Source of the DNA: a virus
Taxonomy: Duplodnaviria; Heunggongvirae; Uroviricota; Caudoviricetes
Length of the DNA: 10,424 nt
Reading direction: 5' to 3' (one strand)
Virus record (IMG/VR): IMGVR_UViG_2778261161_000006
Coordinates: 1 to 10,424 of that record
Positions within the stretch are counted from its first letter, which is position 1. Each line of letters starts with the position of its first letter. The notes below the pieces were generated by a model. That model had not been told where the DNA came from. It saw only the letters and a list, made by a program, of their open reading frames with translations, and did no database searches. Below are positions 1 through 10,424 of the stretch, one piece after another. The position numbers and the translations under genes are program-made.

Positions 1-165
1 ATCTCTGTTGCCGGGATGCCTTCCAGTACAGGCCAGAAAGAGCCATCATCAAGCCCGAGATCGCGGCGTTCGGTTACCGTGGCATTTGAAGAGAAGTATG
101 GCTCCCAGCTGGAGCTGATATTTCGTTTTATCGATCGCGCACTGGCGATTGGTGTGCTGGCCTGA
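1..165 (+). CDS. 3' end of an unidentified ORF upstream of Q (partial; start lies outside the window)
   Basis: Frame 1 is open from position 1 to a TGA at 163-165, ending 17 nt before the Q start. The translation (…[30 protein letters not shown]) matches nothing I recognise. Supported only by the open frame and position. Confidence 0.25.
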
Positions 166-182
166 TTTTGTGGAGAAAGTTA

Positions 183-566
183 ATGCGTGATATTCAGATG
201 GTTCTTGAACGTTGGGGAGCGTGGGCGGCTAATAATCATGAAGATGTGACCTGGTCGTCCATTGCCGCCGGTTTTAAGGGATTAATTCCTTCAAAAGTAA
301 AATCTCGCCCGCAATGTTGTGACGATGACGCGATGATTATTTGCGGGTGCATGGCCCGTCTGAAAAAGAACAACAGCGATTTGCACGATTTATTAGTAGA
401 TTATTATGTAGTCGGTATGACATTCATGTCACTGGCAGGTAAGCATTGCTGCTCTGATGGTTATATCGGGAAAAGGTTACAGAAGGCTGAGGGCATAATT
501 GAAGGGATGTTAATGGCATTAGATATCCGGTTAGAGATGGATATCGTTGTTAATAACTCTAATTAA
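183..566 (+). CDS. quuD: Late-gene antitermination protein Q (127 aa)
   Basis: ATG at 183 preceded by GGAG at 171-174. Cys-rich putative zinc-binding region (…[18 protein letters not shown]…GKHCCSDGY…). Sits immediately upstream of hairpin terminators and the lysis cassette. Matches my recollection of the DLP12 Q-like protein. Confidence 0.8.
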
Positions 567-599
567 TATGCCAATTGTTTACTGAAAGTTATTAAAAAT

Positions 600-618
600 G
601 GGGCGTTGCAACGCCCCC
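600..618 (-). terminator. GC-rich perfect palindrome GGGGCGTTGCAACGCCCC; candidate intrinsic terminator for the antisense porin transcript (possibly bidirectional)
   Basis: 18-nt perfect palindrome at 600-617. On the minus strand it is followed by ATTTTTAATAAC (complement of 585-599). It lies about 140 nt downstream of the nmpC stop on the minus strand. Confidence 0.4.
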
Positions 619-683
619 AAAAATAAAGGGTAATATATAACAGAAGGTTTATATAGTTAGAAGCAAGGTTGTGCTCCTAAAGG

Positions 684-747
684 AAGTGGCTTGAGGGAGC
701 CACTTATATGTTGGGGAGGCAACGCCTCCCGCAACATATCTTTTTCG
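684..747 (+). terminator. Tandem hairpins downstream of Q; the second is a strong intrinsic terminator (candidate tR' of the Q-controlled late transcript)
   Basis: Hairpin 1: AAGTGGCT (684-691) / AGCCACTT (698-705), loop TGAGGG. Hairpin 2: ATATGTTGGGGAGGC (706-720) / GCCTCCCGCAACATAT (724-739), about 15 bp with a one-nt bulge, followed by C and TTTTT (741-745). The position is analogous to lambda pR'-tR'. Confidence 0.5.
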
Positions 748-755
748 TAATCAGA

Positions 756-1853
756 TTAGAACTGGTAAACCAGACCTACAGCAACGATGTCATCAGTGCT
801 TACACCGAGTGCTTTAGTGAAGTCATTTTTGTCAAGCAGGTTGATTTTGTAATCAACGAAAGTAGACATATTTTTGTTGAAGTAATAGGTTGCACCTACA
901 TCAACATATTTGACTAAGTCCTGATCGCCCCATACTCCAAGATCCTTACCTTTAGATTGCAGGTAAGCAACGGACGGACGCAGACCGAAATCGAACTGAT
1001 ATTGTGCAACAGCTTCGAAGTTTTGAGCTTTATTAGCAACGAAGTGATCAGCAAATACAGTCATATTCTGGGTTTCAGAATAGGTAGTGGCCAGGTAAAT
1101 GTTGTTAGCGTCATATTTCAGACCTGCGGCCCAAACTTCTGCATTTTTACCGGAAGCAAATACTTCAGGAAGAACTTTCCCTGCATTAACTTGAGTGTCG
1201 GTACGATCAGATTTCGCATAAGTTGCACCGATACCGAATCCTTCGTATTCATAGGTAGCAGAGAAACCGAAGCCATCACCGTTACCTTCGGTGTAGTTAT
1301 CGAAATCGCTACGATCGTTTTTGCCTTGGTACTGAGCAGCAAAGTTCAGACCATCAACCAGACCAAAGAAGTCGTTGTTACGATAGGTTGCAACACCAGT
1401 GGTGCGACCAGTCATGAACACATCTGTTTGGGTCCAGGTATCGCCACCGAATTCTGGCAGAACGTCAGTCCACGCACCGATGTCGTATGCTACACCGTAG
1501 TTACGGCCGTAATCGATTGAGCCGTAGTCACCGAATTTCAGGCCTGCAAATGCAAGACGGGTTTTGTCTTTGGAGGAACCTTGAGATTCAGCGCGGTTGC
1601 CTTTGAATTCATATTCCCACTGACCGAAACCAGTCAGCTGATCGTTGATTTGGGTTTCGCCTTTGAAGCCCAGACGAACATAAGTAGTATCACCATCATC
1701 TGCATCGTTAGAGGAAAAGTAGTGCTTGGCATTAACTTTCCCGTACAGATCCAGCTTGTTACTGTCTTTATTATAAATTTCAGCTGCCTGAGCAGACATC
1801 GCCATCAGTACTGATGCAGCTACAGCAGAAATTGCCACTGTTAATTTTTTCAT
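756..1853 (-). CDS. nmpC: Outer-membrane general porin, OmpC/OmpF family (NmpC / phage Lc-type), intact 365 aa
   Basis: N-terminal signal peptide [23 protein letters not shown]|AEIYNKD. Porin-like Gly/Tyr/Asp-rich beta-strand pattern and C-terminal YQF with terminal Phe, typical of outer-membrane beta-barrels. Uninterrupted ORF; no IS sequence inside. Confidence 0.92.
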
Positions 1854-2441
1854 CGTGAGCCCTTTTTTTTGAACTATTATTAAAAAATGATGTCACTGCG
1901 CGATAAATATTCATCTAATCAATGTGATTATTTCAAGATGTAAGTTTTAGTTTCTCATTTAATTTGTGAAGTAGATCTCTATTTTTATCTGAACTTTTTC
2001 TATCGAAACCTATTTATGGCTCTTATTTGAACAAAAATAAATCTATTAGCTAATTTATATTAATGGCTGTTATTTATGGTGGTTCTATAATTCGTCTGTT
2101 TAATTTAAACCGGCTAAAAATAACACTGGAAATTATTTATTGGTTATTTGTTGAGGTTTTCTTATGTATTTGTGGTGATGTTTTGAACACTCGGTAGCAT
2201 TCTCATAAATATCATTCAGTGGTTTACGTACGTAAAAAATTGGTTATGCTGTTAAGAGTGGTTACTTCGTCACACAGCTTAAACCCGCCGTCGAGCTGGT
2301 TTTTCCATTTTTTGAGTCTCGATATTAGCTGATAACTCAATACCTGAGTTATTCACTGACTCGGAGTCAGTTACGTTTCTGCTTTTTTGCGATACGTTGT
2401 ATTCCCTCAATTTACACCCGCTTTGTCTGCGAGGTGGGGTT
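1854..2441. promoter_or_regulatory. AT-rich intergenic region of about 590 bp holding the divergent nmpC promoter/leader and the lysis-cassette upstream region; contains repeated TATTTATGG-type motifs and a 14-bp palindrome
   Basis: Visibly AT-rich. Direct repeats ATGGCTCTTATTT (2016-2028) and ATGGCTGTTATTT (2063-2075). TATTTATGG at 2011 and 2071, and TATTTATTGG near 2134. Perfect palindrome TTTACGTACGTAAA at 2223-2236. Confidence 0.4.
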
Positions 2442-2657
2442 ATGAAATTCATGGATAAGTTAACAACTGGAGTCGCCTATGGCACCTCAGCAGGTAGTGC
2501 CGGTTACTGGTTTTTACAGCTGCTCGATAAAGTCACTCCCTCACAGTGGGCAGCAATAGGTGTGCTGGGTAGCCTGGTATTTGGCCTGCTGACGTACCTG
2601 ACAAACCTTTATTTCAAGATTAAAGAAGATAAGCGCAAGGCTGCGAGAGGTGAATAA
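2442..2657 (+). CDS. essD: Class II holin / pinholin with dual-start motif (phage 21 S-like), 71 aa
   Basis: RBS GAGGTGGGG upstream of ATG 2442. N-terminus MKFMDK has two in-frame Met codons (holin/antiholin dual start). Two hydrophobic segments and a charged C-terminus ([13 protein letters not shown]). Stop overlaps the endolysin start (TAATG). Closely resembles phage 21 S as I recall it. Confidence 0.9.
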
Positions 2658-3154
2658 TGCCTCCATCATTACGAAAAGCCGTTGCTGCTGCTATTGGTGG
2701 CGGAGCAATTGCTATAGCATCAGTGTTAATCACTGGCCCAAGTGGTAACGATGGTCTGGAAGGTGTCAGCTACATACCATACAAAGATATTGTTGGTGTA
2801 TGGACTGTATGTCACGGACACACCGGAAAAGACATCATGCTCGGTAAAACGTATACCAAAGCAGAATGCAAAGCACTCTTGAATAAAGACCTTGCCACTG
2901 TCGCCAGACAAATTAACCCGTATATCAAAGTCGATATACCGGAAACAACGCGCGGCGCTCTTTACTCATTCGTTTACAATGTGGGTGCTGGCAATTTTAG
3001 AACATCGACGCTTCTTCGCAAAATAAACCAGGGCGATATCAAAGGCGCATGTGATCAGCTGCGTCGCTGGACATACGCTGGCGGTAAGCAATGGAAAGGC
3101 CTGATGACTCGTCGTGAGATTGAGCGTGAAGTCTGTTTGTGGGGGCAACAGTGA
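2657..3154 (+). CDS. rrrD: SAR (signal-anchor-release) endolysin, T4-lysozyme-like muramidase, 165 aa
   Basis: N-terminal Gly/Ala-rich hydrophobic segment [20 protein letters not shown] (SAR domain). Catalytic E35, D44, T50 in [16 protein letters not shown]. Start overlaps the holin stop. Typical phage 21 R-type. Confidence 0.92.
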
Positions 3155-3612
3155 GCAGAGTAACCGCGATTATATCCGCTCTGATTATCTGCATCATCGT
3201 CAGCCTGTCATGGGCGGTCAATCATTACCGTGATAACGCAATCGCCTACAAAGCCCAGCGCGACAAAAATGCCAGAGAACTGAAGCTAGCGAACGCGGCA
3301 ATTACTGACATGCAGATGCGTCAGCGTGATGTTGCTGCGCTCGATGCAAAATACACGAAGGAGTTAGCTGATGCGAAAGCTGAAAATGATGCTCTGCGTG
3401 ATGATGTTGCCGCTGGTCGTCGTCGGTTGCACATCAAAGCAGTCTGTCAGTCAGTGCGTGAAGCCACCACGGCCTCCGGCGTGGATAATGCAGCCTCCCC
3501 CCGACTGGCAGACACCGCTGAACGGGATTATTTCACCCTCAGAGAGAGGCTGATCACTATGCAAAAACAACTGGAAGGAACCCAGAAGTATATTAATGAG
3601 CAGTGCAGATAG
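3151..3612 (+). CDS. rzpD: Inner-membrane spanin Rz (i-spanin), lambda-type
   Basis: Protein from [13 protein letters not shown]… is near-identical to lambda Rz as I recall it (N-terminal TMD, coiled-coil periplasmic domain). Likely GTG start at 3151 overlapping the endolysin stop (GTGA), preceded by GGGGG; an alternative GTG at 3139 is possible. Confidence 0.85.
3371..3553 (+). CDS. rzoD: Outer-membrane lipoprotein spanin Rz1 (o-spanin), embedded in the +1 frame of Rz, 60 aa
   Basis: [20 protein letters not shown]… has lipobox LVVVGC and a proline-rich mature region ([16 protein letters not shown]). Fully nested within Rz. Near-identical to lambda Rz1 as recalled. Confidence 0.85.
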
Positions 3613-3643
3613 AGCTGACCATATCGATGGGCAACTCATGCAA

Positions 3644-3937
3644 TTATTTTGAGCAATACACACGCGCTTCCAGCGGAGTATAAATGCCTAAAGTAATAAA
3701 ACCGAGCAATCCATTTACGAATGTTTGCTGGGTTTCTGTTTTAACAACATTTTCTGCGCCGCCACAAATTTTGGCTGCATCGACAGTTTTCTTCTGCCCA
3801 ATTCCAGAAACGAAGAAATGATGGGTGATGGTTTCCTTTGGTGCTACTGCTGTCTGTTTGTTTTGAACAGTAAACGTCTGTTGAGCACATCCTGTAATAA
3901 GCAGGGCCAGCGCAGTAGCGAGTAGCATTTTTTTCAT
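3644..3937 (-). CDS. borD: Bor outer-membrane lipoprotein (serum-resistance, Iss family), 97 aa
   Basis: MKKMLLATALALLITGC… has lipobox LITGC. Same length and near-identical sequence to lambda Bor as recalled. Antisense to the lysis genes, as in lambda. Confidence 0.92.
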   Translation of the reverse strand: MKKMLLATALALLITGCAQQTFTVQNKQTAVAPKETITHHFFVSGIGQKKTVDAAKICGGAENVVKTETQQTFVNGLLGFITLGIYTPLEARVYCSK

Positions 3938-4227
3938 GGTGTTATTCCCGATGCTTTTTGAAGTTCGCAGAATCGTATGTGTAGAAAATTAAACAAACCC
4001 TAAACAATGAGTTGAAATTTCATATTGTTAATATTTATTAATGTATGTCAGGTGCGATGAATCGTCATTGTATTCCCGGATTAACTATGTCCACAGCCCT
4101 GACGGGGAACTTCTCTGCGGGAGTGTCCGGGAATAATTAAAAACGATGCACACAGGGTTTAGCGCGTACACGTATTGCATTATGCCAACGCCCCGGTGCT
4201 GACACGGAAGAAACCGGACGTTATGAT

Positions 4228-4638
4228 TTAGCGTGGAAAGATTTGTGTAGTGTTCTGAATGCTCTCAGTAAATAGTAATGAATTATCAAAGGTATAGTAA
4301 TATCTTTTATGTTCGTGGATATTTGTAACCCATCGGAAAACTCCTGCTTTAGCAAGATTTTCCCTGTATTGCTGAAATGTGATTTCTCTTGATTTCAACC
4401 TATCAAAGGACGTTTCTATAAGATGCGTATTTCTTGAGAATTTAACATTTACAACCTTTTTAAGTCCTTTTATTAACACAGTGTTATCGTTTTCTAACAC
4501 AATGTGAATATTATCTGTGGCTAGATAGTAAATATAATGTGAGACATTGTGACGTTTTAGTTCAGAATAAAACAATTCACAGTTTAAATCTTTTCGCACT
4601 TGATCGAATATTTCTTTAAAAATGGCAACCTGAGCCAT
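4228..4638 (-). CDS. ybcV: Hypothetical protein YbcV (DUF1398-type), 136 aa; AT-rich cargo gene
   Basis: ORF open to 4761 (177 aa), but the internal ATG at 4638 is preceded by GGAAGG about 9 nt upstream and gives the 136-aa form I recall for K-12 YbcV. Strongly AT-rich compared with the flanking lambda-like DNA. Confidence 0.7.
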
Positions 4639-4923
4639 TGGTAAAACCTTCCATGTGATACGAGGGCGCGTAGTTTGCATTATCGTTTTTATCGTTTCAA
4701 TCTGGTCTGACCTCTTTGTGTTTTGTTGATGATTTATGTCAAATATTAGGAATGTTTTCAATTAATAGTATTGGTTGTGTAACAAAGTGCGGTCCTGCTG
4801 GCATTCTGGAGGGAAATACAACCGACAGATGTATGTAAGGCCAACGTGCTCAAATCTTCATACAGAAAGATTTGAAGTAATATTTTAACCGCTAGATGAA
4901 GAGCAAGCGCATGGAGCGACAAA

Positions 4924-5130
4924 ATGAATAAAGAACAATCTGCTGATGATCCCTCCGTGGATCTGATTCGTGTAAAAAATATGCTTAATAGCACCATTTC
5001 TATGAGTTACCCTGATGTTGTAATTGCATGTATAGAACATAAGGTGTCTCTGGAAGCATTCAGGGCAATTGAGGCAGCGTTGGTGAAGCACGATAATAAT
5101 ATGAAGGATTATTCCCTGGTGGTTGACTGA
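4924..5130 (+). CDS. ybcW: Small hypothetical protein YbcW, 68 aa
   Basis: ATG at 4924 preceded by GGAG (4911-4914). 68-aa ORF in the position and of the length I recall for DLP12 ybcW. Divergent from ybcV. No recognisable domain. Confidence 0.6.
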
Positions 5131-5294
5131 TCACCATAACTGCTAATCATTCAAACTACTTAACCTGTGACAGAGCCAACACGCAGTCTGTCACTGTCAG
5201 GAAAGTGGTAAAACTGCAACTCAATTACTGCAATGCCCTCGTAATTAAGTGAATTTACAATATCGTCCTGTTCGGAGGGAAGAACGCGGGATGT

Positions 5295-5489
5295 TCATTC
5301 TTCATCACTTTTAATTGATGTATATGCTCTCTTTTCTGACGTTAGCCTCCGACGGCAGGCTTCAATGACCCAGGCTGAGAAATTCCCGGACCCTTTTTGA
5401 TCAAGAGCGATGTTAATTTGTTCAATCATTTGGTTAGGAAAGCGGATGTTGCGGGTTGTTGTTCTGCGGGTTCTGTTCTTCGTTGACAT
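5295..5489 (-). CDS. ylcI: Small basic protein with predicted ribbon-helix-helix fold (YlcI-like), 64 aa
   Basis: Basic N-terminal tail (KNRTRRTTTR) followed by a beta-strand/helix/helix pattern NIRFPNQMIEQINIALDQKGSGNFSAWVIEACRRRL, typical of Arc/MetJ/CopG regulators. Lies in DNA that matches the lambda right end as I recall it. Confidence 0.55.
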   Translation of the reverse strand: MSTKNRTRRTTTRNIRFPNQMIEQINIALDQKGSGNFSAWVIEACRRRLTSEKRAYTSIKSDEE

Positions 5490-5688
5490 GAGGTTGCCCC
5501 GTATTCAGTGTCGCTGATTTGTATTGTCTGAAGTTGTTTTTACGTTAAGTTGATGCGGATCAATTAATACGATACCTGCGTCATAATTGATTATTTGACG
5601 TGGTTTGATGGCGTAGATGCACGTTGTGACATGTAGATGATAATTATTATCATTTTGCGGGTCCTTTCCGGCGATCCGACAGGTTACG

Positions 5689-5700
5689 GGGCGGCGACCT
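5689..5700 (+). other. cosN: lambda cohesive-end sequence GGGCGGCGACCT (terminase nicking site)
   Basis: Exact 12-nt lambda cohesive-end sequence, flanked on both sides by sequence matching the lambda genome termini as I recall them (…CCGACAGGTTACG | GGGCGGCGACCTCGCGGGTTTTCGCTATTTATGAAAATTTTCCGG…). Confidence 0.9.
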
Positions 5701-5739
5701 CGCGGGTTTTCGCTATTTATGAAAATTTTCCGGTTTAAG

Positions 5740-5856
5740 GCATTTCCGTTCTTCTTCGTCGTAACTTAATGTTTTTATTTAAAATACCCCCTGAAAAGAA
5801 AGGAAACGACAGGTGCTGAAAACGAGCTTTTGGGCCTCTGTCGTTTCCTTTCTCTG
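5740..5856 (+). promoter_or_regulatory. cosB: terminase small-subunit binding region (R3, IHF site I1, R2, R1)
   Basis: R3-like CATTTCCGTTCTTCTTCG (5741-5758). AT-rich I1-like stretch (about 5768-5786). R2 GAAAGGAAACGACAGG (5798-5813) and R1 CTGTCGTTTCCTTTC (5838-5852) form a 15-nt inverted repeat. Positioned between cosN and the Nu1 start, as in lambda. Confidence 0.75.
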
Positions 5857-5877
5857 TTTTTGGCCGTGGAATGAACA

Positions 5878-6423
5878 ATGGAAGTCAACAAAAAGCAGCT
5901 GGCTGACATTTTCGGTGCGAGTATCCGTACCATTCAGAACTGGCAGGAACAGGGAATGCCCGTTCTGCGAGGCGGTGGCAAGGGTAATGAGGTGCTTTAT
6001 GACTCTGCCGCCGTTATAAGATGGTATGCCGAAAGGGATGCTGAAATTGAGAACGAAAAGCTGCGCCGGGAAGTTGAAGAACTGCGGCAGGCCAGCGAGA
6101 CAGATCTCCAGCCAGGGACTATTGAGTACGAACGCCATCGACTTACGCGTGCGCAGGCCGACGCACAGGAGTTGAAAAATGCCAGAGACTCCGCTGAAGT
6201 GGTGGAAACCGCATTCTGTACTTTCGTGCTGTCGCGGATCGCAGGTGAAATTGCCAGTATTCTCGACGGGATCCCCCTGTCGGTGCAGCGGCGTTTTCCG
6301 GAACTGGAAAACCGACATGTTGATTTCCTGAAACGGGATATCATCAAAGCCATGAACAAAGCAGCCGCGCTGGATGAACTGATACCGGGGTTGCTGAGTG
6401 AATATATCGAACAGTCAGGTTAA
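5878..6423 (+). CDS. nohD: Terminase small subunit Nu1, 181 aa
   Basis: MEVNKKQLADIFGASIRTIQNWQEQGMPVLRGGGKGNEV… (winged helix-turn-helix N-terminus) is near-identical to lambda Nu1 as recalled. 3' end overlaps the A start, as in lambda. Confidence 0.93.
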   Translation: MEVNKKQLADIFGASIRTIQNWQEQGMPVLRGGGKGNEVLYDSAAVIRWYAERDAEIENEKLRREVEELRQASETDLQPGTIEYERHRLTRAQADAQELKNARDSAEVVETAFCTFVLSRIAGEIASILDGIPLSVQRRFPELENRHVDFLKRDIIKAMNKAAALDELIPGLLSEYIEQSG

Positions 6424-7501
6424 CAGGCTGCGGCATTTTGTCCGCGCCGGGCTTCGCTCACTGTTCAGGCCGGAGCCACAGACCGCCGTTGAATGGGCGG
6501 ATGCTAATTACTATCTCCCGAAAGAATCCGCATACCAGGAAGGGCGCTGGGAAACACTGCCCTTTCAGCGGGCCATCATGAATGCGATGGGCAGCGACTA
6601 CATCCGTGAGGTGAATGTGGTGAAGTCTGCCCGTGTCGGTTATTCCAAAATGCTGCTGGGTGTTTATGCCTACTTTATAGAGCATAAGCAGCGCAACACA
6701 CTTATCTGGTTGCCGACGGATGGTGATGCCGAGAACTTTATGAAAACCCACGTTGAGCCGACCATCCGCGATATTCCGTCGCTGCTGGCGCTGGCTCCGT
6801 GGTATGGCAAAAAGCACCGGGATAACACGCTCACTATGAAGCGTTTTTCCAATGGTCGTGGCTTCTGGTGCCTGGGCGGTAAAGCGGCAAAAAACTACCG
6901 TGAAAAGTCGGTGGATGTGGCGGGTTATGATGAACTTGCTGCCTTTGATGAGGATATTGAACAGGAAGGCTCTCCGACGTTCCTTGGCGACAAACGTATT
7001 GAAGGCTCGGTCTGGCCAAAGTCCATCCGTGGCTCCACGCCCAAAGTGAGAGGCACCTGCCAGATTGAGCGTGCAGCCAGTGAATCCCCGCATTTTATGC
7101 GTTTTCATGTTGCCTGCCCGCACTGCGGGGAGGAGCAGTATCTTAAATTTGGCGACAAAGAGACGCCGTTTGGCCTCAAATGGACGCCGGATGACCCCTC
7201 CAGCGTGTTTTATCTCTGCGAGCATAATGCCTGCGTCATCCGCCAGCAGGAGCTGGACTTTACTGATGCCCGTTATATCTGCGAAAAGACCGGGATCTGG
7301 ACCCGTGATGGCATTCTCTGGTTTTCGTCATCCGGTGTGACCGTGGAAACGGCCCGCCGCATTCTGGCAGCTGCACCACAGAGTGCACAGGCGCGCAGTG
7401 ACACTGCGCTGGATCGTCTGATGCAGGGGGCACCGGCACCGCTGGCTGCAGGTAACCCGGCATCTGATGCCGTTAACGATTTGCTGAACACACCAGTGTA
7501 A
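6398..7501 (+). pseudogene. A: Truncated terminase large subunit A (N-terminal ~313 aa) fused to ~54 codons from the 3' end of the gene preceding D (C/Nu3 region); deletion remnant
   Basis: MNISNSQVNRLRHFVRAGLRSLF… through …GILWFSSSG matches lambda gpA N-terminal half as recalled. Lambda A is about 641 aa, whereas this ORF is 367 aa. After the junction near 7336 the sequence (VTVETARRILAAAPQ…NDLLNTPV) is not gpA and runs straight into the D RBS. Confidence 0.85.
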
Positions 7502-7510
7502 GGGATGTTT

Positions 7511-7843
7511 ATGACGAGCAAAGAAACCTTTACCCATTACCAGCCGCTGGGCAACAGTGACCCGGCACATACGGCAACCGCGCCCGGCGGATTGAGTGCG
7601 AAAGCGCCTACAATGACCCCGCTGATGCTGGACACCTCCACCCGTAAGCTGGTTGTGTGGGATGGCACCACCGACGGTGCTGCCGTTGGCATTCTGGCGG
7701 TTGCTGCTGACCAGACCAGCACCACGCTGACGTTCTACAAGTCCGGCACGTTCCGTTATGAGGATGTGCTCTGGCCGGAGGCTGCCAGCGACGAGACGAA
7801 AAAGCGGACCGCGTTTGCCGGAACGGCAATCAGCATCGTTTAA
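7511..7843 (+). CDS. D: Head decoration protein D, intact, 110 aa
   Basis: [27 protein letters not shown]…TAISIV is near-identical to lambda gpD as recalled. RBS AAGGGA 5 nt upstream of ATG 7511. Confidence 0.92.
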
Positions 7844-7860
7844 CCTTACCCTTCATCACT

Positions 7861-7887
7861 AAAGGCCGCCTGTGCGGCTTTTTTTAC
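7861..7887 (+). terminator. Hairpin plus T-tract in the D-E intergenic region (intrinsic terminator/attenuator-like)
   Basis: AAAGGCCGCCTGTGCGGCTTTTTTT: GCCGC/GCGGC stem with flanking A/T pairing, followed by 7 T. Confidence 0.5.
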
Positions 7888-7898
7888 GGGATTTTTTT

Positions 7899-8405
7899 AT
7901 GTCGATGTACACAACCGCCCAGCTGCTGGCGGCAAATGAGAAGAAATTTAAGTTTGATCCGCTGTTTCTGCGTCTCTTTTTCCGTGAGAGCTATCCCTTC
8001 ACCACGGAGAAAGTCTATCTCTCACAAATTCCGGGACTGGTAAACATGGCGCTGTACGTTTCGCCGATTGTTTCCGGTGAGGTTATCCGCTCCCGTGGCG
8101 GCTCCACCTCTGAATTTACACCGGGATATGTCAAGCCGAAGCATGAGGTGAATCCGCAGATGACCCTGCGTCGCCTGCCGGATGAAGATCCACAGAATCT
8201 GGCGGACCCGGCTTACCGCCGCCGTCGCATCATCCTGCAGAACATGCGAGACGAAGAGCTGGCCATTGCTCAGGTCGAAGAGATGCAGGCCGTTTCTGCC
8301 GTGCTTAAGGGCAAATATACCATGACCGGTGAAGCCTTCGATCCGGTTGAAGTGGATAGAGGTCTTTTTAGAAGAAGGTCTCTCCGTTACTGCACCTGCT
8401 TCTGA
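7899..8405 (+). pseudogene. E: Truncated major capsid protein E (first ~153 codons of 341) followed by 15 out-of-context codons and a stop; deletion remnant
   Basis: MSMYTTAQLLAANEKKFKFDPLFLRLFFRESYPFTTEKVYLSQIPGLVNMALYV…EAFDPVEVD matches the lambda gpE N-terminus as recalled, then diverges at 8358 ([15 protein letters not shown]). Confidence 0.88.
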
Positions 8406-9840
8406 TTATATTGTTGCTGAAACGACTTATAAATTTGGCGCAACTGATCCTTATTCTGAATCAGTTGCGGTAAATTTAATTTTAGATTTTAAACAAGGTA
8501 ATGGATTTTATAGTTCGTATCCTGTTTTGAGTAAGTCAGACATTAGCGGGAATAAGATTTACGCTAATGATGAAGTTATTGTCCGTAGTCAGAACGCGTT
8601 AAGGATGATTGCAGGTGATTACGGTGTCATATGGCGAAATGATGGAGCAAATACTTACTTGCTCATGACTGATAAAGGCGACCAGTACGGTGGCTGGAAC
8701 GGTCTTCGACCATTTGCAGTAAATAACGCAACAGGTGAAGTGACGATCAATACATCACTTAATTCTCCTAAGGGGATTAAGGGAAATTCTGATACAGCTA
8801 CGAAACTTCAGACAGCAATAAAAATATCTGGTGTTTCGTTTGATGGTTCTACTGATATCACTTTAACCGCTGCGCATGTTGCTGCTTTTGCCAGAAGAGC
8901 AACGGATACGTATGCCGATGCGGATGGGGGCGTTCCCTGGAATGCCGAATCAGGCGCTTACAATGTCACTCGCTCTGGCGACAGCTATATTCTGGTTAAC
9001 TTCTATACCGGAGTCGGAAGTTGCCGGACCTTGCAGATGAAGGCGCATTACAGAAATGGTGGTCTGTTCTACCGTTCTTCAAGAGACGGTTATGGTTTTG
9101 AGGATGACTGGGCAGAAGTTTATACCTCGAAAAATCTTCCACCAGAAAGCTACCCAGTCGGCGCACCAATCCCGTGGCCATCAGATACCGTTCCGTCTGG
9201 TTATGCCCTGATGCAGGGGCAGACTTTTGACAAATCTGCCTACCCGAAACTTGCAGTCGCTTATCCGTCAGGCGTGATCCCTGATATGCGTGGCTGGACG
9301 ATTAAGGGCAAGCCCGCCAGTGGTCGTGCCGTATTGTCTCAGGAACAGGACGGCATTAAATCGCACACTCACAGCGCCAGCGCATCCAGTACGGATTTGG
9401 GTACGAAAACCACATCGTCGTTTGATTACGGCACTAAATCCACGAATAACACCGGGGCGCATACGCACAGTCTGAGCGGCTCTACAAGCTCGGCCGGAGC
9501 ACACTCGCACGTTGATGGTCGCAGGTTTAATACAAGCACTTTTAAAGACACCTATCAGTATGGTTCTACAGCTGTCGGAAGTAACTCATACCAGGTACAA
9601 GGGGCGGTTGGTCTGGGCATTGGCACGATGGCGAATACGAACTCTGCTGGCGCGCATACCCACTCACTGTCCGGCACTGCTGCAAGCGCAGGTGCACACG
9701 CACATACTGTCGGTATTGGTGCTCATACGCACTCCGTTGCGATTGGCTCACATGGACACACCATCACCGTTAACGCTGCTGGTAACGCGGAAAACACCGT
9801 CAAAAACATCGCATTTAACTATATTGTGAGGCTTGCATAA
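8359..9840 (+). pseudogene. stf: 5'-truncated side tail fibre gene (stf-like): non-lambda AT-rich central domain plus lambda Stf / T4 gp37-like C-terminal His-box domain
   Basis: Continuous frame from the junction to the stop, with no credible start of its own (the GTG at 8329 lies inside the E remnant in another frame). C-terminal ~230 aa ([71 protein letters not shown]…[11 protein letters not shown]) match lambda Stf as recalled. Confidence 0.8.
9361..9770 (+). repeat. Internal repeated His-box (HxH) motifs of the tail-fibre distal domain
   Basis: Repeated GAHTHSLSG(S/T)…AGAH(S/A)[18 protein letters not shown] and [11 protein letters not shown] segments within the stf-like ORF. Confidence 0.6.
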
Positions 9841-10424
9841 TGGCATTCAGAATGAGTGAACAAGCACGGACCATAAAAATTTATAATCTGCTGGCCGGAA
9901 CTAATGAATTTATTGGTGAAGGTGATGCATATATTCCGCCTCATACAGGTCTGCCAGCAAACAGTACCGATATTGCACCACCAGATATTCCTGCTGGCTT
10001 TGTGGCTGTTTTCAACAGTGATGAGGCATCGTGGCATCTCGTTGAAGACCATCGGGGTAAAACGGTTTATGACGTAGCGTCAGGGGACGCGTTATTTATT
10101 TCTGAACTCGGTCCGTTACCGGAAAATGTTACCTGGTTATCGCCGGAAGGGGAGTTTCAGAAGTGGAACGGCACAGCCTGGGTGAAAGATGCAGAAGCAG
10201 AAAAACTGTTCCGGATCCGGGAGGCGGAAGAAACAAAAAACAGCCTGATGCAGGTAGCCAGTGAGCATATTGCGCCACTTCAGGATGCTGTAGATCTGGA
10301 AATCGCAACGGAGGAAGAAACCTCATTGCTGGAAGCCTGGAAAAAGTATCGGGTGTTGCTGAACCGTGTTGATACATCAACTGCACCTGATATTGAGTGG
10401 CCTACGAACCCTGTCAGGGAGTAA
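9840..10424 (+). CDS. tfa: Tail fibre assembly protein Tfa, intact, 194 aa
   Basis: [54 protein letters not shown]… is near-identical to lambda Tfa as recalled. Start overlaps the stf stop (TAATG). Stop at 10422-10424. Confidence 0.9.

Follow-up and report, generated by a model that had tools for sequence, protein, structure and literature searches.

The window analyzed here, a stretch of 10,424 nucleotides, is a lambdoid late region located at the DLP12 site (tRNA-Arg argU/intD), as assigned by a megablast search of 5426 complete E. coli genomes and by comparison with an annotated intact prophage at the same site (L002). It starts with a fragment of a Q-type antiterminator gene, followed by a porin gene on the minus strand, the holin/lysozyme/Rz genes, bor, ybcV, ybcW, ylcI and Nu1 (5878–6423), after which come a truncated large terminase gene (6398–7501), the decoration gene D (7505–7843), a stub of the capsid gene E (7872–8405), a fiber open reading frame and tfa. 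The porin gene (756–1853, minus strand) is intact, encodes a 365-residue protein of the OmpC/NmpC type and has upstream of it a non-coding, very AT-rich stretch (28–29% GC) at approximately 1850–2250. Compared with the intact prophage, the element in the window carries three internal deletions. One lies at ~71–75, where window 1–75 aligns with the yfdR region of L002 (5538–5612) and the sequence starting at 71 aligns immediately 5' of quuD (L002 15001), a loss of ~9.4 kb that comprises early and immunity genes. Another deletion, of 3.9 kb and with a 6-bp overlap, lies at 7332–7337 and joins the large terminase at residue ~313 in frame to the S49 peptidase/scaffold gene, generating at 6398–7501 a 367-residue chimera that ends with the last ~54 codons of the latter.

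The fiber frame is open from 8329 to 9840 in the map of open reading frames, as a single frame of 503 codons with zero internal stops, whereas true fiber sequence begins only at 8359, directly 3' of a deletion junction at 8357/8358. At this junction, codon 162 of the capsid gene is joined out of frame to codon 639 of a side tail fiber gene (stf). The crossover coincides with a 2-bp TA microhomology, which was recognized in a three-way comparison of the sequences. The left flank consists of the 5' remnant of a lambda-type major capsid gene (7872–8357, plus strand, ~162 codons), which covers profile positions 1–143 of 329 of Pfam Phage_cap_E; its frame continues for 16 codons past the junction up to a stop at 8403–8405, the fiber lying in the +1 frame relative to it. 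Identity of this side to the intact prophage L002 is 99.9% over 71–7337 and 98.9% over 7332–8358. The right side of the junction is 99.7% identical in DNA, without gaps and with 6 mismatches in 2047 nt, to the gene for WP_072147513.1 and its tfa. This protein, a 1131-residue 'prophage tail fiber N-terminal domain-containing protein' of E. coli PapM-36-2, is a side tail fiber of the StfR type, and window 8359–9840 corresponds to its residues 639–1131, followed by an intact tfa. According to the coordinates of L002 and of the PapM-36-2 locus, ~15 kb have been lost between the two flanks, namely the remainder of E, FI through J, lom and codons 1–638 of stf. Members of this fiber family are encoded 3' of J and lom in a late operon that is intact, and they possess a usable translation start; in the window, J and lom are gone. 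The tail-attachment domain phage_tail_N (Pfam PF08400), which occupies residues 1–134 in both the intact 1131-residue parent and K-12 StfR, is absent from the open reading frame of the window; therefore, the window holds a fragment of a Stf/StfR family member and no functional member. An earlier note on this DNA, made from its letters, had described a tail-fiber remnant surviving after the loss of every other tail gene. The remnant indeed proves to be the 3' half of a StfR-type fiber lacking its N-terminal domain, and besides it and tfa, no tail genes are left, either in the window itself or farther downstream in its sister contigs.

The remnant is a chain of modules, all on the plus strand. 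Module A (8359–8826) is an AT-rich, gp34-like shaft domain with a match to Pfam Gp34_trimer (PF21446) at remnant residues ~17–120 (window 8407–8718), which covers profile positions 16–115 of 116 with 107 bits against a cut-off of 27 (E 1.1e-30, above the curated gathering threshold). Remnant residues 63–154 (8545–8820) additionally align with residues 1034–1119 of T4 gp34 (PDB 4UXE, 5NXF and 9X3R; E ~1e-19) and with P1 S (5YVQ), and the start of a 'KLxTxxxIxGVxFDGSxDITL' motif follows the gp34-like domain within the module. Module B (8827–9141) is a conserved domain similar to gp37_C and to the S/S' proteins of phage P1, which matches Pfam gp37_C (PF12604) with 24.4 bits and, over remnant residues 174–268 (8878–9162), PDB 8JU3 (E 3.7e-21). 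It is followed by the Collar domain (Pfam, E 1.4e-11) and the first His boxes of a gp37-type needle (9142–9436), by module C (9437–9706), a hypervariable receptor-binding tip delimited by its divergence from other fibers and from T4 gp37 in the 2XGF alignment, and by the last His boxes and the conserved fiber C-terminus including the stop (9707–9840), which are identical in lambda, K-12 StfR and T4 gp37. From the collar to the C-terminus, remnant residues 262–493 (9142–9837) match the receptor-binding needle of T4 gp37 (PDB 2XGF, E 4.8e-88; Pfam Collar and Phage_fiber), in accordance with the His-box C-terminus of the lambda Stf/T4 gp37 type that had been read from the letters alone. Seven HxH motifs (SHTHS, AHTHS, AHSHV, AHTHS, AHAHT, AHTHS and SHGHT) were found by eye in the fiber translation. 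The PHROGs assignments are tail fiber for the remnant and tail-fiber assembly protein for its neighbor.

The domain preceding the His-box part had been singled out as unrecognized and as unlike lambda Stf. The latter point holds, since similarity to lambda starts only at '…GAPIPWPSD'. The former does not, because homology searches place the domain as Gp34_trimer plus gp37_C-like (PDB 4UXE and 8JU3). Nor is the domain unusual: the whole corresponds to a standard StfR-type shaft that is present in K-12 Rac StfR, in the allelic form of the window in 154 of the 5426 genomes, and in the phages PhiR30_1 and Turner. Judged by these homologies, the central domain is the normal distal shaft of StfR-type fibers, and every domain of the remnant is assignable to a known family.

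The marked AT-richness that had been ascribed to 8400–9150 is strong only in 8359–8826 (GC 38.7%, GC3 28.2%), while 8827–9150 is merely intermediate (GC 48.8%, GC3 41.7%), compared with a GC of 53.5% and a GC3 of 52.2% in the collar and tip and a GC3 of 56–70% in the upstream head genes. The same dip is found in the intact fiber of PapM-36-2 and, in a milder form (GC3 34–40%), in K-12 StfR. Mosaicism was followed by the sliding-window identity of the window to five fibers, those of PapM, M8, 40EC, PhiR30_1 and K-12. Module A (8357 to ~8826) is identical in PapM, M8, 40EC and PhiR30_1 and 51–69% identical in K-12 stfR. The segment 8827–9436 is 93–100% identical in all five, except for the bin at the A/B boundary (8807–8896), which falls to 80% in K-12, module B as such showing ~95% nucleotide identity with K-12 stfR. 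Module C is identical only in PapM, with 63–70% in M8, 40EC and PhiR30_1 and 39–74% in K-12 stfR, although both of its flanks are at least 94% identical in these fibers; on its 3' side, the segment 9707–10424, which includes tfa, is 93–100% identical in all of them. Repeats of His-box DNA at 9454 and 9649 bracket this module. Among the complete E. coli genomes, the full A plus B stretch occurs in 154 of 5426 and its 3' part in ~1860, K-12 included, whereas the allele of module C occurs in 262 of 5426. Since the A and C alleles are shared by different sets of fibers, modules A and C assort independently, and the description of the fiber as mosaic is borne out. Nevertheless, intact fibers share both the AT-richness and the mosaicism, which are therefore properties of intact fibers and not of the remnant. 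In phage records, module A is found at 98–99% protein identity in PhiR30_1 and Turner, followed by 9g, JenK1 and HdK1 at ~63%, other lambdoid phages at 53–55%, P1 at 52% and T-even gp34 at up to 58%. A recent import of module A from T-even phages was rejected on these values, T-even gp34 reaching at most 58% protein identity and the best non-prophage relatives ~63%.

The tfa gene (9840–10424, plus strand) encodes 194 residues, 94% identical to lambda Tfa, with matches to Pfam Caudo_TAP (E 3e-45) and PHROG 105, so that its designation as intact stands. Its ATG overlaps the stf stop (TAATG) and is preceded 8 nt upstream by a GAGG Shine–Dalgarno sequence. The gene lies immediately 3' of the fiber, and the same stf–tfa pair is found in intact prophages at 99.7% identity. 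Downstream of tfa, the sister contig L005, which is identical to the window, continues with the methyltransferase gene ybcY and a direct tfa fragment. The latter is a tfaX-like direct repeat of the 3' end of tfa (10259–10379), situated ~1 kb downstream (L005 11310–11430) with 89% identity, and ybcY sits between the two copies. Rfam IS009 (RF02111) also matches this end of the gene (10183–10381, plus strand; 229 bits, gathering score 117). The match does not extend beyond the coding sequence of tfa, so that the candidate sRNA family overlaps tail-fiber assembly gene or pseudogene sequence. A search for a serine invertase with inverted tip–tfa segments, as in the Pin/Cin/Gin systems of e14, Rac, P1 and Mu, revealed no recombinase downstream of tfa in L005. 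An invertase shufflon was rejected for this lineage, in which no recombinase adjoins tfa, while in some relatives, e.g., M8, a recombinase is present downstream of tfa.

The junction at 8357/8358 is spanned by none of the 5426 complete E. coli genomes, and an exact 32-mer across it has zero matches among species-representative genomes, a set with one genome per species that is uninformative if E. coli/Shigella is represented there by a single genome. Both results would be expected if the junction were an assembly artefact, that is, a chimeric contig made of a capsid gene and an unrelated fiber gene. However, once the carrier lineage was located by means of the terminase-fusion protein, the same junction with identical flanks was recovered from at least four draft assemblies at NCBI that are independent of each other (GCA_002463805.1, GCA_012909125.1, GCA_012266005.1 and GCA_012807355.1), with 0–2 differences over 2.6 kb and with GCA_002463805.1 identical to the window. 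Moreover, the chromosomal surroundings of the carriers are coherent (ybcY, tfaX, ompT, envY and nfrA), and we attach a very small probability to an artefact. In two sister assemblies (L004 11746–21104 and L008 3027–5768), the capsid stub is itself interrupted by an island with its breakpoint at window 8143. Besides an integrase, two AlpA proteins, a D5-type primase and SSB, the island codes for capsid E and decoration D homologues of its own and for a Nu1-like small terminase, and by this gene content it resembles a capsid-forming phage satellite of the PICI type inserted in the prophage capsid gene.

When the sister assemblies were checked for stops and frameshifts, the carriers turned out to be identical across the remnant, save one 3-bp in-frame deletion in a single assembly (L006). 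This near-identity, together with the 6 differences in 2047 bases from the intact fiber, dates the deletion as recent. A deletion of this age leaves no time for either decay or constraint to show and, hence, no power to test purifying selection, and a 503-codon frame without internal stops is what is expected after a very recent event. In addition, stf and tfa lie at the right end of the prophage, where they are spared by internal deletions through their position alone. Thus, the claim that fiber and chaperone had been kept together, with its implication of selection, finds no support in this lineage, and we infer that selection has played no part in their retention. Overall, the observation that started this analysis is confirmed while its interpretation is partly supported: a mosaic remnant is present, but its domain is not unusual and its retention by selection is not demonstrable.

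Expression of the fragment is also doubtful. None of the in-frame starts of the fiber (GTG at 8329, TTG at 8347, TTG at 8527 and ATG at 8605) is preceded by a Shine–Dalgarno sequence, and promoter-like sites were no commoner in a promoter/terminator scan than in shuffled sequence. Hidden expression signals were rejected on both counts, and we infer that the fragment is not expressed. A role in defense was rejected as well, since PADLOC defense models gave zero matches for the fiber remnant, Tfa, the terminase fusion and the capsid stub. Against a wholly inert locus, it has to be considered that late transcripts dependent on Q could still extend across it, and the ribosome-binding site of tfa and the fiber frame open over 503 codons likewise count against it. 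These same features, the open frame and an intact tfa with its own translation signal, are what would be needed if the truncated fiber and Tfa were produced together to yield a soluble trimer that binds a receptor and is of use to the host, e.g., by masking an outer-membrane receptor against related phages. A precedent exists in the comparable isolated needle fragment of T4 gp37, which forms native-like trimers when it is co-expressed with chaperones (PMC6957217). Nevertheless, the candidate starts devoid of Shine–Dalgarno sequences, the promoter-like sites at shuffled-sequence frequency and the lack of matches to defense families make such a fragment extremely improbable, and no obvious N-terminal signal peptide was seen by eye that would hint at its reaching the cell surface.

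A further reading, proposed on account of the survival of the tip and its chaperone gene, is that remnant and tfa form a host-range donor cassette, from which an infecting lambdoid phage would replace its own fiber tip and tfa through two crossovers, one within the conserved collar/His-box arm and the other within tfa, and that this role explains their persistence. The geometry is favorable, as homology arms to lambda flank the divergent tip on both sides. The left arm to lambda stf (9153–9482) is 82–88% identical apart from one 30-nt indel, with 87.5% over 9160–9438, and the right arm (9756–10415) is 90–100% identical, its longest perfect run measuring 71 nt. This arrangement resembles the Rac–lambda substrate studied by De Paepe et al. 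(2014, PMC3945230), in which lambda acquires marker DNA from stfR (Rac) or tfaQ (Qin) at ~2e-6, mainly via Red-beta. In the genomes compared here, tip alleles are seen to reassort naturally between conserved flanks. Owing to these arms around the variable tip, a role of the remnant as a recombination donor is plausible. However, the mechanism is already established, and any stf/tfa copy in E. coli has the same capacity; queried with 7800–10424, the genomes show a median of 4 matching places each. Furthermore, the clonality of the carriers gives no sign of selection for retention, a benefit to phages leaves maintenance by the host unexplained, and the experiments of De Paepe et al. demonstrated DNA uptake and not a change in host range (PMC3945230). 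A cassette whose donor role accounts for its persistence is, therefore, unlikely. Very unlikely, too, is the broader proposition that half-fiber and tfa persist by selection, be it as a standing tip donor for superinfecting lambdoid phages or as an expressed, soluble, receptor-masking fiber end. In a smaller variant of this proposition, the AT-rich gp34-like allele (GC3 28%) might have reached temperate phages fairly recently, with a virulent phage of low GC content as its source.

The reading that best accounts for the locus, to which we assign a probability of roughly 85%, is that of an inert, recently formed 3' pseudogene fragment (codons 639–1131) of a catalogued StfR-type fiber gene, accompanied by its intact chaperone gene tfa. 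An illegitimate deletion of ~15 kb at a 2-bp microhomology took away everything from the rest of the capsid gene to J, lom and the N-terminal attachment domain of the fiber, and at the same time fused the stumps of capsid gene and stf out of frame. The prophage, situated at the DLP12 (argU) site, is decaying and has undergone three internal deletions. In the intact parent, Tfa would fold the chain of gp34-like, P1-S/gp37_C-like and collar modules and the putatively iron-binding His-box needle with its variable tip into a trimeric, receptor-binding fiber end. Having neither an attachment domain nor a credible start codon, the fragment presumably does nothing for its host, and superinfecting lambdoid phages may incidentally use it as a donor in recombination, as they may any stf/tfa homologue. 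Apart from its bearing on correct annotation, the finding is of little consequence. The locus offers a clean and datable snapshot of prophage decay, with three microhomology deletions at the DLP12 site, and a textbook case of modular tail-fiber mosaicism, in which gp34-like and tip modules assort independently between His-box/collar flanks. A donor role that held true for this particular tip allele would take the findings of De Paepe et al. one step further, from the uptake of DNA to a change in host range, the mechanism itself being known.

Among known systems, the intact fibers of the StfR type are the closest to the remnant, which differs from them by the lack of the first 638 residues including the phage_tail_N attachment domain. 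In StfR of the K-12 Rac prophage (1120 residues), residues 644–1120 are collinear with the remnant at 76% amino-acid identity and follow the same order of Gp34_trimer (residues 663–762), gp37_C-like, Collar and His-box domains, whereas K-12 stfR carries a less AT-rich allele of the gp34-like module, with 51–69% DNA identity to that of the remnant, and a different tip allele. Lambda Stf (orf-401/orf-314), which has been reported to bind OmpC (PMC11338833), is homologous in collar, His-box needle and C-terminus from '…GAPIPWPSD' on, but has no counterpart of 8359–9150, a tip region unrelated in sequence (~47% identity) and additional repeat insertions, while its Tfa shares 183 of 194 residues (94%) with Tfa of the window. 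In the needle of T4 gp37, HxH motifs coordinate seven iron atoms (PMC6957217); the seven HxH motifs of the remnant equal these sites in number and may likewise bind metal. The distal tip loops that bind LPS and OmpC in T4 (2XGF) diverge in the remnant, for which reason the receptor of its tip cannot be inferred, and the chaperone is a lambda-type Tfa in place of the gp38/gp57A of T4. Remnant residues 63–154 are ~50–58% identical in amino acids to T-even gp34, whose C-terminal region is represented in T4 by PDB 4UXE, 5NXF and 5NXH. The setting of the gp34- and P1 S-like domains is different here, namely the distal half of a side fiber in a siphovirus and not the proximal half-fiber of a myovirus.

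As regards the prophage as a whole, the closest parallel is DLP12 of K-12 with its relics aaaD/tfaD, which occupies the same site (argU–intD … ybcY–tfaX–ompT), shares the gene set quuD, porin, essD–rrrD–rzpD, bor, ybcV, ybcW, ylcI and nohD, and has likewise decayed by internal deletions. In K-12 DLP12, the terminase stub is presumably joined directly to the tfa stub, whereas the lineage of the window still retains D, the capsid stub, half of stf and an intact tfa.
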